Assembly: GCA_036229005.1 (NCBI GenBank)
Contig: JAZAMN010000031.1
Location: 128,001 to 192,000, forward strand
Length of the DNA: 64,000 nt
Reading direction: 5' to 3'
Source of the DNA: Myxococcota bacterium
GTDB taxonomy: Bacteria; Myxococcota_A; UBA796; CAJQPC01
This document shows, in pieces, positions 13,288 to 35,324 of this stretch. Each line of letters starts with the position of its first letter. The first letter of the stretch is position 1. A program made the position numbers and the translations under genes. Under the pieces are notes generated by a model. It made no database searches. It was not told the DNA's origin and was given only the letters and a program-made list of their open reading frames with translations.

Positions 13288-13716
13288 ATGTTTGCCTTGT
13301 TTGTCTTGTCCATCGCCTGCGGCGCCCCTGACGCCCCGGCTGCCAGCAGCAGCGCCCCGAGCAGCGAGCCGGCCGCGGCGCAATCGGTCGAGAGCCTGAT
13401 CCCTGGCGGCCAGCGGATCGACGACAAGCTGGTCGTCGGCGGTCAGCCCAGCCAGGACGCCCTCCAGGCCTACAAGGACGCCGGGTTCACCACCATCATC
13501 AACCTGCGCACCCCCGGCGAGATGCGCTTTGACGAGGCCGGCGTGGTCCAAGGGCTCGGCATGACCTACGTGAACATCCCCGTGGGCGGCGCCTCGGACA
13601 TCAACCCGGAGAACGCCGCCAAGGTGCAGGAGCTGATCGCCAGCTCCCAGGGCCAGGTCCTCCTGCACTGCGCCAGCGGCAACCGGGTGGGCCAGCTCCG
13701 CGCGGTCATGAACTGA
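13288..13716 (+). CDS. DUF442/Blh-type sulfurtransferase or PTP-like lipoprotein
   Basis: GGQP, IINLR and HCASGNR active-site loop; lipobox SIAC; GGAG SD. Confidence 0.82.
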   Translation: MFALFVLSIACGAPDAPAASSSAPSSEPAAAQSVESLIPGGQRIDDKLVVGGQPSQDALQAYKDAGFTTIINLRTPGEMRFDEAGVVQGLGMTYVNIPVGGASDINPENAAKVQELIASSQGQVLLHCASGNRVGQLRAVMN

Positions 13717-13723
13717 GGCTGCG

Positions 13724-14302
13724 ATGACCCTGCTCCCCCTGCTGCTCGCGTGCTCGGACCCGGTGACCTCGCCTGGGTCCGATGGCGTGGACAGCGGCGG
13801 GGGCCAGGATTCGGTGGGGTGGGCCACGCTGCACGGCGAGCCCATCAGCCCCGCCATCCCCCTGCCGGACTTTGACGGCGTCCGGGACTCCAGCGGTGCG
13901 GTCGTCGGCCCCGAGGACCTGAAGGGACACGCCACGGTGATGTGGTTCTACCCGGCAGCGGGGACCTACGGCTGAACGGCCGAAGGTTGCGGGTACCGCG
14001 ACCTCTACGCAGACTTTCAGGCCCTGGGCGTCGAGATCATCGGCGTGAGCTTCGACACGCCCCAGGACAACGCCGGCTTCATCCAGGCGGAGGGCTTCCA
14101 GTACGCGCTGTGGAGCGACCTGGAGCGGGAGCTGGCGCTGGTCTACGGCGCGGCCGACAGCGCGGATCAGGCCAGAGCGGACCGCCGAACGGTGCTCCTG
14201 GATGCCCAAGGCGCCGCGATCCTGCGCTACAGCCCCGGTCTCAGCGTCGGCGCACACCCCCAGGAAGTGCTGGAGGACTGCCAAGCGCTGTTTGGGGACT
14301 GA
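13724..14302 (+). CDS. BCP/PrxQ-type peroxiredoxin lipoprotein, probable selenoprotein (TGA 13973-13975 as Sec84)
   Basis: Reading through the TGA gives WFYPAAGTYG-U-TAEGCGYRD..GVEIIGVSFD..LWSD..R, the BCP YPxxxTxGCTxExC motif. It joins track ORFs 13724..13975 and 14045..14302 in one frame (192 aa). Confidence 0.9.
13984..14004 (+). promoter_or_regulatory. Putative bacterial SECIS hairpin
   Basis: AGGTTGCG-GGTAC-CGCGACCT stem-loop starting 8 nt after the in-frame TGA; resembles the E. coli fdhF upper stem GGUUGCAGGUCUGCACC. Confidence 0.75.
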
Positions 14303-14409
14303 GCGCCCAGCCGACCGAGCGGACCTGTCCCCCCAGCGTTTCAGAGCTGTCACAGCCGGGCCCGACTTTGGTGAGCAGACTCTCCGCTCACCCAAGCCTG
14401 GAGCTCCCC

Positions 14410-31666: not shown

Positions 31667-32821
31667 ATGGCCCGGGCCTTTGACTCCTGGCGCGCGCTCT
31701 CGCTCTCTCTCTACATGGTCCTGACCGGCTACGCGGTCCTGGTCGGAATCCCCGTCGTCAGCGCCGCCTGGGTGGGCAAGCTGGGCTTCACCGAGGCCCA
31801 GGTCGGACAGCTCGCGGCGGCTGATCTGGGCGGCCTGTCCCTGGGGGCCGTGCTCTGCGCCTGGGTGCTGCCCAAGGTCAACCGCCGCCACGTCGTCCTG
31901 GGCGCCGCGGCGCTCGCAGTCGGCGCGAACCTGGCCTGCATGGCCACCCAGGACTTCGGCCCGGTGCTCGCCCTCCGCGCCACCGCCGGCGTCGCGTCCG
32001 GTGCCTACACCGCCATCGCGGTCGCAGCGCTGGGGGCCACCTCCCGCCCGGAGCGGACCTACGCCTGGGTGCTCTTCGCCTTCGCCCTCGCGCAGGCCCT
32101 GGAGCTGTCCCTGCTGCCGATGCTCTCCATGAACGGCATCTACCTGGCGCTCGCCCTCGGCTTCGCTGGGGCGCTCCCCTTCTTCCACTGGATGCCGTCC
32201 CACGCCGAGCCGCAGCCAGACAGCCAGGCCGCCCACCCGGCCCTCCCCAAGTGGGTCCCCTGGCTCGTCATGGCCGCGGTGCTGTTCAGCTACGTGAACA
32301 TCGGCACCTACTGGACCTACATCGAGCTGGCCGCACAAGACGCGGCCCTGCCCAGCGGCTGGATCCGCGGGGTCCTGATCGGGGCCTCGGCCGCCTCCCT
32401 GCTGGGCTGCCTGGTCTCCACCACCCTCAGCCGCCGGCTGGGCCTCGGGCGCGCCATCCGCTGGACCCTGGCCGCGCAGGCCGCGGTCGTGCTGCTCTTG
32501 GTCGGGGGCCTACAGACCGGCCGCTTCCTCGCCAGCGTCAGCGCGTTCAGCGCCCTGTGGATGCTCTCGGACATCTTCCAGCTCTCCGGCATCGCCCGCA
32601 TCGACGCCAGCGGGCGGCTCGCCGCGCTGATCCCCGGCGCCCAGGGGCTGGGGCAGATCCTGGGCCCCAGCAGCGCCGCCGCCCTCCTGGGCTCCGGGGC
32701 GGGCTACCGCGGCGTCTTCGCCCTGGCCGCCGCAGCCTCCGGCGTCGCGCTGGCGCTGCACCTCTTCCTCCACTGGACCCGCGCCGCCGACCGGGCGCTG
32801 GCCACCGATGACCTTTCCTGA
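31667..32821 (+). CDS. MFS transporter
   Basis: About 12 hydrophobic segments; GGAGGT SD. Confidence 0.85.
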   Translation: MARAFDSWRALSLSLYMVLTGYAVLVGIPVVSAAWVGKLGFTEAQVGQLAAADLGGLSLGAVLCAWVLPKVNRRHVVLGAAALAVGANLACMATQDFGPVLALRATAGVASGAYTAIAVAALGATSRPERTYAWVLFAFALAQALELSLLPMLSMNGIYLALALGFAGALPFFHWMPSHAEPQPDSQAAHPALPKWVPWLVMAAVLFSYVNIGTYWTYIELAAQDAALPSGWIRGVLIGASAASLLGCLVSTTLSRRLGLGRAIRWTLAAQAAVVLLLVGGLQTGRFLASVSAFSALWMLSDIFQLSGIARIDASGRLAALIPGAQGLGQILGPSSAAALLGSGAGYRGVFALAAAASGVALALHLFLHWTRAADRALATDDLS

Positions 32822-32834
32822 CTCTGGAGCGACC

Positions 32835-33509
32835 ATGTCCGCTACCGCACGCCGCGTGTTCCCCCCCGCCCCCACCACCCCCAGAGCCCTGCTCCTGCGG
32901 GCGCACCCCCTGCCCGACAGCTTCAACTCCGCCCTGGCGGACGCCTGGCAGGCCGGCGCCGAGTCCGCGGGCGCGACCGTCCAGACCCTGGATGTCCACG
33001 AGCTGCGCTTCGACCCGGCGCTGTTGATGGCCCACCGCGAGTCCATGCCCTTGGAGCCCGACCTCCAGCGCGTCCAGCGCGAGCTCGCGGCCTGCGCCCA
33101 CCTGACCATCGCCTACCCGGTCTGGTGGGGGAGCACGCCCGCCCTGCTCAAGGGCCTGTTCGACCGGGTGCTGCAGCCCGGGTGGGCCTACGCGATGGGC
33201 GCCGGCGTGTTCCCCGACAAGGGCCTCTCCGGGCGCACCGGCCGCCTGCTGGTCACCATGGACACCCCCGGCTGGTACGCCAGCCTGGTCTACGGCGCGT
33301 CCGCCCGAAAGCAGGTCCAGCGCGCGACGCTCCACTTTGTGGGCATCGCCCCCACGCGGGTGGATCTCTTCGCCCCCATCGAGAAGACCACCCCCGCCCA
33401 GCGCGACAAGATGCTCAAGCAGGCCCAGGCGGCCGGGCGAAAGGACGGCGCGCGCCTGCTTGCGCGCTTCCCCGGACAGCGGCAGGCTCTGGGCTCCAAT
33501 GACTGTTGA
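32835..33509 (+). CDS. NAD(P)H-dependent oxidoreductase, flavodoxin-like fold
   Basis: AHPLPDSFN, YPVWWGSTPALLKGLFDRV, TMDTP; GGAG SD before ATG 32835. Confidence 0.9.
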   Translation: MSATARRVFPPAPTTPRALLLRAHPLPDSFNSALADAWQAGAESAGATVQTLDVHELRFDPALLMAHRESMPLEPDLQRVQRELAACAHLTIAYPVWWGSTPALLKGLFDRVLQPGWAYAMGAGVFPDKGLSGRTGRLLVTMDTPGWYASLVYGASARKQVQRATLHFVGIAPTRVDLFAPIEKTTPAQRDKMLKQAQAAGRKDGARLLARFPGQRQALGSNDC

Positions 33510-34389
33510 AGACCACGAACTGGAGCCCCACCGCCCCACCCTGGAGGCCCTGGCCTTCCGGATGCTCGGGTCCGCAAGCGAGGCAGAAGAGGTGGTCCAA
33601 GAGGCCTTCATCCGAGCCCTCCTGCAGCCCCCGGTCCTGGACGGTCGCCCCCTGCGCTCCTGGCTGGTGCGGGTGACCTGCAACCTGGCCCGCGACCACC
33701 TCCGCAAGCGCAAGGTCCGGGCCTACCACGGCCCCTGGCTGCCCGAGCCCGTGCGCTCCCCGCCCAGCGACCCCACCCTGGACGCCGAATCCCAGCTCCG
33801 CCTGTCAGAGACGGCCACCCTGGCCTGGCTGGTCGCCGCCGAAGCCCTCACCCCCGAACAGCGCGCGGTCTTCCTGCTCCGCGAGGTCCTGGAGTGGGAG
33901 GTGCAGGAGGTCGGCCAGGCCCTGGAGCGCTCCCCCGGCGCCGTCCGCAGCCTGCACCTGCGCGCCCGCAGAGCGCTCGTGGACGCCCCCATCCCCAGCC
34001 CGGACCCCTCCACCCTGCGCGCCCACCGCCGCGCCCTCCACGCCATGCTCACCGCGCTGGCCAGCCGAGACCTCGGGGCGGTCCAGGCGCTGATGACCCC
34101 CGACGTCACTCTGCTGTGCGACGGGGGTGGAGAGGTCTACGCCGCCGGCAAGGCCCTGCGCGGCGCGGAGCGGGTGGCCCGGGTCCTGCTGAACCTCAGC
34201 GCGGCGTCCATCCAGCTCGACATCGAACACATCAACGGCCTCCCCGCCGTGGTCGAGCGCTCTCCCCCCCAGCCCGGCTGGCCCAGCGTGAGCGTGACCG
34301 CCATCGCCCTGGGACCGGATGGCCGGATCTGCGCGCTCTACAACGTCGTCGCCCCCTCCAAGCTCCGCGGCTTCACCGCCAAGCCCTGA
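33499..34389 (+). CDS. ECF sigma factor of ECF41/SigJ type with SnoaL-like C-terminal extension
   Basis: GPWLPEP linker motif, CDGGG motif in the extension, regions 2 and 4; adjacent oxidoreductase gene is typical of the group. Confidence 0.9.
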   Translation: MTVEDHELEPHRPTLEALAFRMLGSASEAEEVVQEAFIRALLQPPVLDGRPLRSWLVRVTCNLARDHLRKRKVRAYHGPWLPEPVRSPPSDPTLDAESQLRLSETATLAWLVAAEALTPEQRAVFLLREVLEWEVQEVGQALERSPGAVRSLHLRARRALVDAPIPSPDPSTLRAHRRALHAMLTALASRDLGAVQALMTPDVTLLCDGGGEVYAAGKALRGAERVARVLLNLSAASIQLDIEHINGLPAVVERSPPQPGWPSVSVTAIALGPDGRICALYNVVAPSKLRGFTAKP

Positions 34390-34403
34390 GCTGGATCACC
34401 CCC

Positions 34404-34427
34404 CTCCCCCTGCGCCCACAGGGGGAG
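34404..34427. terminator. GC-rich hairpin after the ECF41 gene
   Basis: CTCCCCCTG-cgccca-CAGGGGGAG; no U-tract. Confidence 0.4.
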
Positions 34428-34466
34428 GTCCCCAGGGCGATACCTTGACCCACCCCTGGAGCGCCC

Positions 34467-35324
34467 ATGTCCGAGCAGATTCAGCCCCCCGTCTACACCA
34501 AGTCCGGCAAGCTGGCCAAGCGCTACTACGAGGCCGAGCTGGCCCGCCTCCAGGAGGAGCTCGTGCGGCTCCAGTACTGGGTCAAGGCCACCGGCAAGCG
34601 CGTGGTCATCGTGTTCGAGGGCCGGGACGCCGCCGGCAAGGGCGGCACCATCAAGCGCATCACCGAGCGCCTGAACCCCCGCGGCGCCACCGTCGTCGCC
34701 CTGGGCGTGCCCACCGAGCGGGAGAAGACCCAGTGGTACTTCCAGCGCTACGTGCAGCACCTGCCTGCGGCCGGCGAGATCGTGCTCTTTGACCGGTCCT
34801 GGTACAACCGCGCGGGCGTCGAGAAGGTCATGGGCTTCTGCACCGACGCCCAGTACCAGCAGTTCATGCGGAGCTGCCCGCAGTTCGAGCGCATGCTGGT
34901 CCGGGACGGCATCACCCTGATCAAGTACTGGTTCTCCGTGTCCTCGCAGGAGCAGGAGCGCCGCTTCCAGAGCCGCATCCACAACCCCCTCAAGCGGTGG
35001 AAGATCAGCCCCATGGACCTCGAAGCCCGCAGCCGCTGGTCCGAGTACTCCCAGGCCAAGGACGCGATGTTCGAGCACACCGACATCAAGCAGGCCCCCT
35101 GGTTCGTGGTGCCCAGCGACGACAAGAAGCGCGCCCGCCTCAACTGCATCAACCACCTGCTCTCGCAGTTCGAGTACCAGGACCTGATGCCCGGCCCCAT
35201 CGCGCTCCCCGCCCGCACCGAGGACATCGGCTACGTGCGCCCGCCCTTGGACGAGCAGACCTTCGTGCCCGATGTCTACGGGCCGCCCGCAGGCAGTGAC
35301 ACGCCAGAAACCCCCGAAGCCTGA
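34467..35324 (+). CDS. ppk2: Polyphosphate kinase 2, single domain
   Basis: FEGRDAAGKGGTIK, FDRSWYNRAGVE, SDDKKRARLN. Confidence 0.96.
   Translation: MSEQIQPPVYTKSGKLAKRYYEAELARLQEELVRLQYWVKATGKRVVIVFEGRDAAGKGGTIKRITERLNPRGATVVALGVPTEREKTQWYFQRYVQHLPAAGEIVLFDRSWYNRAGVEKVMGFCTDAQYQQFMRSCPQFERMLVRDGITLIKYWFSVSSQEQERRFQSRIHNPLKRWKISPMDLEARSRWSEYSQAKDAMFEHTDIKQAPWFVVPSDDKKRARLNCINHLLSQFEYQDLMPGPIALPARTEDIGYVRPPLDEQTFVPDVYGPPAGSDTPETPEA

Follow-up and report, generated by a model that had tools for sequence, protein, structure and literature searches.

A Myxococcota BCP/PrxQ-type peroxiredoxin gene with a lipoprotein-type signal and an in-frame UGA predicted to encode selenocysteine

Introduction

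The stretch of Myxococcota DNA analysed here (64,000 nucleotides, referred to as the window) contains a locus that a list of open reading frames splits into two pieces of 83 and 85 amino acids, although both belong to one frame in which a single TGA stands at the place of a catalytic residue. This raises the questions of whether the gene is broken or intact, how the UGA is read, what kind of enzyme is made and where in the cell it would act. Selenocysteine (Sec)-containing peroxiredoxins (COG1225 Bcp / PF00578, motif TxxU) are a catalogued and experimentally confirmed family, according to the accessible text of the respective publications (PMC9312934, PMC13188914, PMC1088965). The original prediction for this locus, made from the nucleotide sequence, was a Sec-containing BCP peroxiredoxin that is also a membrane-tethered lipoprotein. 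The reading that we favour, and as a whole consider likely, is that of an intact BCP/PrxQ gene in which UGA would specify Sec and whose product is a predicted lipid-anchored peroxide reductase of the envelope.

A single reading frame for a BCP/PrxQ-type peroxiredoxin

The gene consists of one frame of 192 codons that begins with ATG 13724, ends with the stop codon TGA 14300-14302 and contains only one internal TGA (Table 1). Its start codon is fixed because an in-frame TGA lies four codons upstream. Frame reading therefore agrees with the original prediction of one frame with a single TGA exactly at the peroxidatic site (YPAAGTYG-U-TAEGC), and the N-terminus MTLLPLLLAC is present as described, followed by a linker that contains Asp in addition to Ser and Gly.

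Table 1. Coordinates of the peroxiredoxin gene and its parts (positions in the window) and of further Sec candidates in the same genome (contig positions).
Feature	Position	Strand	Basis or remark
RBS-like GAGG	13715..13718	+	5 nt upstream of ATG, overlaps stop of upstream gene; from sequence, predicted function
Whole gene, BCP/PrxQ peroxiredoxin, 192 codons + stop, one in-frame TGA	13724..14302	+	frame reading, PF00578, homologues
Ultra-short uncharged lipoprotein-type signal ending in LLAC	13724..13753	+	sequence and homologues; predicted lipidation
Cys10, predicted lipid anchor	13751-13753	+	predicted lipidation
Ser/Gly/Asp-rich linker, residues 11-33	13754..13822	+	length and sequence vary between homologues
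Peroxiredoxin domain, residues 34-192	13823..14299	+	model pLDDT 93, peroxiredoxin fold
In-frame TGA, predicted Sec84, peroxidatic position of P77-x-x-x-T81-x-x-U84	13973..13975	+	alignment
Predicted bacterial SECIS hairpin	13984..14004	+	apical G 13993 is wobble base of Gly90
Cys89, candidate helix-2 resolving residue (UxxxxC)	13988..13990	+	codon within SECIS stem
Arg154, conserved peroxiredoxin active-site Arg	14183..14185	+	invariant in 29/29 rows; aligns with Arg of solved BCPs
Cys186, C-terminal helix	14279..14281	+	in 37/51 clade loci
Further Sec candidates, TGA positions	C20:145132(+), C59:15418(-), C46:17998(-), C4:17214(-)		contigs of genome G000
Further Sec candidates, TGA positions	C16:73480(-), C39:50285(+), C14:65058(-)		contigs of genome G000; the seven candidates include loci L049-L053

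The translated frame matches PF00578 (AhpC/TSA) with 80.6 bits against a cut-off of 26, and the match spans the TGA. In the active-site motif P77-A-A-G-T81-Y-G-U84, the Pro and the Thr (or Ser) are present in 57 of 58 loci, and the distal Arg154 is found in every aligned homologue. Every Foldseek match listed for the predicted structural model is a peroxiredoxin, although the fold search cannot tell PrxQ from Prx1/AhpC. In a sequence-profile search of the PDB, the best 14 of 22 matches were BCP-type or plain peroxiredoxin/AhpC-TSA chains and ranked above chains of the Prx1 type. A short C-terminus, the spacing between U84 and C89 and a BCP model as the best NCBIfam match are further features of BCP/PrxQ. 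None of the NCBIfam peroxiredoxin models was matched above its cut-off (PRK09437, 56.8 of 140 bits; NF053650, 45.1 of 260 bits; the PrxU model NF040737, 24 of 270 bits) and we therefore place the protein in a divergent BCP/PrxQ clade outside these equivalogs. The top profile matches (E about 1e-22) were BcpB from Mycobacterium tuberculosis (5EPF), a Burkholderia protein (5ENU) and Bcp4 from Sulfolobus (3HJP), which also appeared among the top fold matches with TM of about 0.77 and in which PxxxTxxC and the Arg align; these are Cys enzymes of 24-32% identity that have no lipoprotein signal. The protein is thus very likely a BCP/PrxQ-type peroxiredoxin with predicted Sec at the peroxidatic site. 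By analogy with the peroxiredoxin family, the selenolate of Sec84, held by Thr81 and Arg154, would attack H2O2 or an organic hydroperoxide.

The in-frame TGA and the hairpin behind it are conserved together

A search of 61 genomes from the same order gave 53 matches at E <= 2.2e-30, spread over 49 genomes. One TGA is contained in 49 of these matches; the four matches lacking it all come from one genus. When 301 genomes of the phylum were searched, 75 matched the profile at 1e-28, and a single TGA was present in 58 of the 64 matches at E <= 1.3e-40. For the aligned column of codon 84, 59 loci were read and the duplicate L047 was left out; the remaining 58 distinct loci have TGA in 50 cases, TGC in seven and TCC in one, and neither TAA nor TAG occurs. 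Homologues with TGA and homologues with Cys at this site, for which the original prediction proposed a search, are therefore both present.

In a quick tree of 70 rows, 58 N-terminally extended forms are split from short BCPs with an SH-aLRT support of 99, and the Cys forms fall in two separate groups among the TGA forms. The simplest reading is an ancestral Sec with repeated reversion to Cys. The expectation that Cys forms would occur in genomes lacking Sec machinery had to be discarded, as selA is retained in the genomes with Cys forms: it is present in G194, G221, G303 and G173, and in the four genomes of genus g3 with Cys forms a selA match was found each time (three above cut-off, one split), together with a tRNA-Sec in three of them. 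The clade also includes paralogues with lipoprotein-type signals and Ser or another residue at position 84 (L075 in G303, P0033 and P0036), which are probably non-catalytic peroxiredoxin-like proteins. Elsewhere in the phylum, short Sec-BCPs that lack a signal and have the SECIS element at the same position were observed (L088-L091), three of the four without Cys89.

Folding with RNAfold predicts that positions 13984-14004 form a hairpin of 9 bp with a 3-nt GUA loop and -13.5 kcal/mol. For this 21-mer a z of -3.5 was obtained and one of 200 shuffled sequences was equally stable. Folding energy alone is weak evidence, because longer windows only give z = -0.5 to -1.8. According to the accessible text of PMC13188914, bacterial SECIS elements have a loop of 3-9 nt with a G within its first two positions, a stem of 4-16 bp, a distance of 16-37 nt from UGA and an MFE <= -7.5; the hairpin, with a 3-nt loop starting with G, 9 bp, 17 nt and -13.5 kcal/mol, lies within all of these limits, as the bSECIS check suggested in the original prediction would have it. 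The proposed resemblance to the E. coli fdhF element at SECIS distance also holds against the fdhF sequence: both share a GGUUGC 5' arm, a G-G-U apex and an ACC 3' end, whereas the hairpin starts 9 nt past the UGA here and 11 nt past it in fdhF, and the 9-bp stem arises here because a U without a partner in fdhF is able to pair. In the same genome, a hairpin of the same shape with at least 8 pairs occurs 3' of 63 of 3939 terminal TGAs (1.6%, rough gene calls), none is found 3' of the terminal TGA of the peroxiredoxin gene itself, and a genome search for exact copies of the hairpin, allowing up to 2 mismatches, revealed none elsewhere.

The codon usage behind the TGA differs between Sec and Cys forms. 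Gly88 is encoded by GGT in 48 of 50 TGA loci and in none of the seven TGC loci, while GGT accounts for 7% of the Gly codons of the genome; the apical G, a silent third base in codon 90, is present in 49 of 50 TGA loci and again in 0 of 7 TGC loci. Among 39 conserved columns in 26 TGA orthologues, use of a single codon is restricted to the TGA and to codons 88-90, 92 and 93. This constraint on silent sites is the decisive evidence for a SECIS element. Within the closest 30 loci no compensatory change of a pair was found, the stem being invariant and largely dictated by the protein. When the comparison is widened to 29 TGA loci, two pairs are changed on both sides (5 cells in total) and 95.7% of the cells are paired as compared to 40-47% in slid controls; the shuffle controls ignore kinship. 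L088 is an exception, a TGA homologue with a weak hairpin that lacks the apical G. Folding energy was also tried as a means to separate TGA from TGC forms and failed, since a 5-bp core imposed by the protein sequence persists in the Cys forms; some TGC loci fold equally stably by way of other pairings.

The genome (6.4 Mb, 94% complete) possesses tRNA-Sec, selA, selB and selD, all above curated cut-offs, so that the full set of genes that the original prediction proposed to look for is there. Given this machinery, the conservation of the TGA, the silent apical G and the compensatory pairs, it is close to certain that the in-frame UGA is recoded as Sec, as far as sequence comparison can tell. 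Judging from this conservation and from the published bSECIS model, SelB-tRNA(Sec) would bind the hairpin 9 nt past the UGA. SelD (G000:C35, about 32800-35100; L012) is itself a Cys form (CGGCAAK) and not a Sec form, and is fused behind an oxidoreductase-like domain of about 400 residues.

Cys89 as candidate resolving residue

The original prediction included a UxxxxC pair. The U84-C89 spacing is present, and the pair itself is a candidate, as the codon lies in the RNA stem, TGA homologues replace Cys89 and many clade members have a further Cys at 186. In the published survey of PrxQ proteins, about 60% place the resolving Cys at helix 2 (PMC4749874, accessible text). The balance of the sequence comparisons favours Cys89 as resolving residue and, most likely, Cys89 would react with the selenenic acid to form a selenenyl-sulfide, like the resolving Cys in PrxQ of the helix-2 type. 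This role is confounded because the codon is situated in the hairpin stem and because a third Cys (Cys186) exists.

A less probable, though not negligible, reading is that of an envelope 1-Sec enzyme, in which Cys89 either owes its conservation mainly to the RNA stem or takes part in a structural disulfide with Cys186, while a partner protein or Cys186 (helix-5 type) resolves the oxidized Sec; its probability overlaps with that of our preferred explanation, with which it has recoding and location in common. The Cys89 codon does pair within the stem, and five TGA homologues (L048, L085, L088, L089 and L091) have Leu, Lys or Arg in place of Cys89. In 51 loci of the clade, Cys89 and Cys186 occur together in 37 (36 from the initial count and L043 by eye), Cys89 only in 12 and neither in two, and no locus has Cys186 alone; Cys186 is also missing from the two clade members with Leu89. 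Peroxiredoxins with a helix-5 resolving Cys and 1-Cys forms are also described (PMC4749874, accessible text). Against this, all seven TGC forms, which are freed from the SECIS constraint, retain Cys89, Cys89 is present in the 12 loci that lack Cys186, and the distant paralogue P0036 has a C-terminal Cys in the absence of Cys89. The frequency of the helix-2 position in PrxQ also speaks for a resolving Cys89, and residues 76-89 of the structural model are unwound, similar to the locally unfolded form of helix-2 enzymes, with lower confidence in this region.

Predicted location in the envelope

An extracytoplasmic lipoprotein is what the sequence comparisons suggest with good confidence. A canonical lipoprotein signal has 16-26 residues, a positive n-region and the box [LV][ASTVI][GAS]C (PMC8689077, accessible text). 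MTLLPLLLAC has 9 residues before the Cys and neither Lys nor Arg, and therefore falls outside the canonical definition in length and charge; in its LLAC box, the Cys and positions -1 and -3 fit, whereas [ASTVI] does not include the Leu at -2. No box occurs more often in this genome than LLAC (210 of 638). Among the closest 30 loci, a lipobox-type Cys is present in 28 (25 detected by script; L021, L023 and L032 by eye), several of which have n-regions with Lys or Arg, while the signal of the remaining two is hydrophobic but lacks the Cys. L037 and L038, from genus g10, have a hydrophobic signal and no lipobox Cys, and are probably soluble periplasmic forms. In the whole genome, 444 genes combine a fixed start with a hydrophobic, charge-free N-terminus, and 222 of these possess a lipobox-type Cys at residue 8-13, compared to a background of 1% Cys among all residues; a looser count of short lipobox signals gave 512 of 5030 rough gene calls. 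Such short uncharged lipobox signals are found throughout the genome, for example at 13288-13716 and in the 17365 region of the window. Four lgt genes, two lspA genes and one lnt gene are encoded.

The membrane-tethered lipoprotein of the original prediction thus draws support from the canonical signals of orthologues, from the 222 genes with short signals and from lgt, lspA and lnt, and is weakened by the fact that the protein's own signal does not fit the canonical definition. As this signal is uncharged and shorter than defined, export and lipidation are treated here as predictions: the short signal would lead to export, with lipidation of Cys10 and cleavage carried out by Lgt/LspA/Lnt.

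It is improbable that the protein is a selenoperoxiredoxin but not a classical lipoprotein, with an N-terminus of 10 residues that would be too short for Lgt/LspA; in that case it would be cytoplasmic, or held by an uncleaved hydrophobic tip, or exported by another route. The deviation from canonical length and charge and the occurrence in the phylum of short Sec-BCPs of cytoplasmic type that share the SECIS position (L088-L091) would be in accordance with this. However, orthologues swap short signals and canonical Lys/Arg signals while keeping the same Cys, half of the uncharged hydrophobic N-termini with fixed start have a lipobox-type Cys at residue 8-13 against a background of 1% Cys, and the genome has a separate Cys BCP without signal on contig C2. 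We therefore retain the lipoprotein as the preferred prediction.

Other readings of the in-frame UGA

Some bacteria insert Cys in a SECIS-dependent way, and seven homologues do have Cys at this site, so that the UGA might be read as Cys or another residue, either by a reassigned code or by SECIS-dependent insertion of Cys at low selenium. This is very improbable: TGA terminates 3942 of 5030 rough gene calls, among them selA and selB, and since it is the main stop codon, the code is not reassigned; moreover, the only tRNA with a TCA anticodon found in the genome scores as tRNA-Sec, and SelA and SelD are present.

That the locus is a pseudogene, an assembly error or two separate small genes has a practically negligible probability, for although a stop codon lies inside the frame and databases store the halves separately (P0006-P0016), the column never contains TAA or TAG in 58 loci, the downstream frames are intact with none of the decay that the original prediction had named as a refutation, the downstream half on its own has no catalytic motif, and the TGA is unchanged in two other strains. 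The latter are represented by two contigs from other marine runs of different studies that span the gene and differ by 23 and 24 substitutions, none of them in the TGA or in the hairpin. As these contigs keep the TGA, it is no assembly error, and TGC or TGT, which would have spoken against Sec, was not seen. In both contigs, the 27 bases just past the peroxiredoxin stop (14302-14330) are swapped for 1872 others, an extra gene or element absent from the present genome. One contig of 168 bases from an RNA run matches 14094-14261, 3' of the TGA; it possibly derives from DNA and so is no evidence of expression, and no contig over the TGA was found among the RNA contigs searched. The division into two fragments that was foreseen for annotation pipelines is what databases contain: Sec forms are stored as halves, and whole-length entries are only Cys-bearing.

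Relation to known peroxiredoxins and selenoproteins

With the prokaryotic Sec peroxiredoxin family the protein shares the domain, the PxxxTxxU motif, the predicted peroxidatic Sec and an in-frame bSECIS, and the present clade adds an N-terminal lipoprotein-type signal and a linker, whereas reviews, in their accessible text, call peroxiredoxins intracellular. In the searched text of selenoprotein reviews, the term "lipoprotein" (reviews of 2022 and 2026) and the term "BCP" (review of 2026) do not occur. PprX from Caulobacter crescentus (PMC3322552) is, from the accessible description, a BCP/PrxQ protein that is also exported, in a host that like the present one has a DsbD/ScsB-like transporter and exported TlpA-like proteins. 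By the same description PprX is set apart as a Cys enzyme with a signal of 20 residues and a differently placed resolving Cys, whereas the present protein has predicted Sec, a lipobox-type signal of 10 residues and a helix-2 Cys. A precedent for predicted Sec in proteins with signals, occasionally lipoproteins, is given by SaoB/SaoX of the SAO system (bioRxiv 10.1101/2022.07.06.499078, accessible part), which are ABC substrate-binding proteins of anaerobic Firmicutes and not peroxidases.

In the open-access literature searched, at the level of abstracts, no description of a lipoprotein Sec-BCP was found. Sec-peroxiredoxins are known and so is periplasmic PrxQ, while their combination with a predicted lipid anchor was not encountered there. 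The locus represents neither a new enzyme class nor a new recoding mechanism. It would extend a known class of selenoenzymes to the oxidizing envelope, where a selenolate must stay reduced, and it identifies a clade throughout the phylum whose genes are cut in two by gene callers. It also offers a natural experiment, in which at least two lineages appear to have reverted to Cys, lost the silent-site SECIS signature and kept selA. Finally, the gene could serve as a reporter for whether uncharged signals of 10 residues are lipidated and whether insertion of Sec is compatible with co-translational export.

Electron supply and further Sec candidates

In Caulobacter, periplasmic PprX receives its electrons from ScsB via TlpA, or from the DsbD thioredoxin domain (PMC3322552, accessible text). 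The present genome encodes a DsbD/ScsB-like protein of 793 residues. Since the conserved neighbours of the peroxiredoxin gene in 38 loci with short flanks include no redox partner, the electron pathway is proposed by analogy only: re-reduction would most likely come from the DsbD/ScsB-like transporter, either by its own thioredoxin domain or by exported proteins of the thioredoxin fold, several of which are Sec candidates, in analogy with ScsB-TlpA-PprX of Caulobacter. In these 38 loci, the upstream gene is common to only three loci of the same genus and a MATE gene to five. The upstream gene (13288-13716, +) encodes a lipoprotein-like protein with the motif HCASGNR (CX5R) that weakly resembles TIGR01244/Blh sulfur-transferase domains, and its stop overlaps the RBS of the peroxiredoxin gene.

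From the 244, 66 and 17 candidates of three genome scans, seven further Sec candidates were selected by hand: the formate dehydrogenase alpha subunit (FdhA) and a UshA-like CxU protein, whose names were assigned by eye, and five thioredoxin-fold UxxC genes, one of which scores above the cut-off set for NF053656, an NCBIfam (seleno)protein model. In six of the seven, the apex is G-G-U or G-U and lies at +18 to +21, the hairpin of the candidate on C4 being atypical. Six of the seven start with a lipobox-type signal, the exception being FdhA, so that, the peroxiredoxin included, 7 of 8 accepted Sec candidates are lipoprotein-like (the peroxiredoxin, the five thioredoxin-fold proteins and the UshA-like CxU protein). 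For P0017, TGA is present in all four close orthologues.

As a tentative model that leans on the Caulobacter analogy, Sec-PrxQ may be the terminal enzyme of a selenium redox network in the envelope of marine Myxococcota, running from DsbD/ScsB to Sec-TlpA-like proteins and on to Sec-PrxQ, whose members would be delivered by uncharged signals of 8-11 residues. Fusions of a Sec-thioredoxin-like domain were also observed, with an N-terminal (DsbD-alpha-like) domain of DsbD in P0019 and with LVIVD repeats in P0021.
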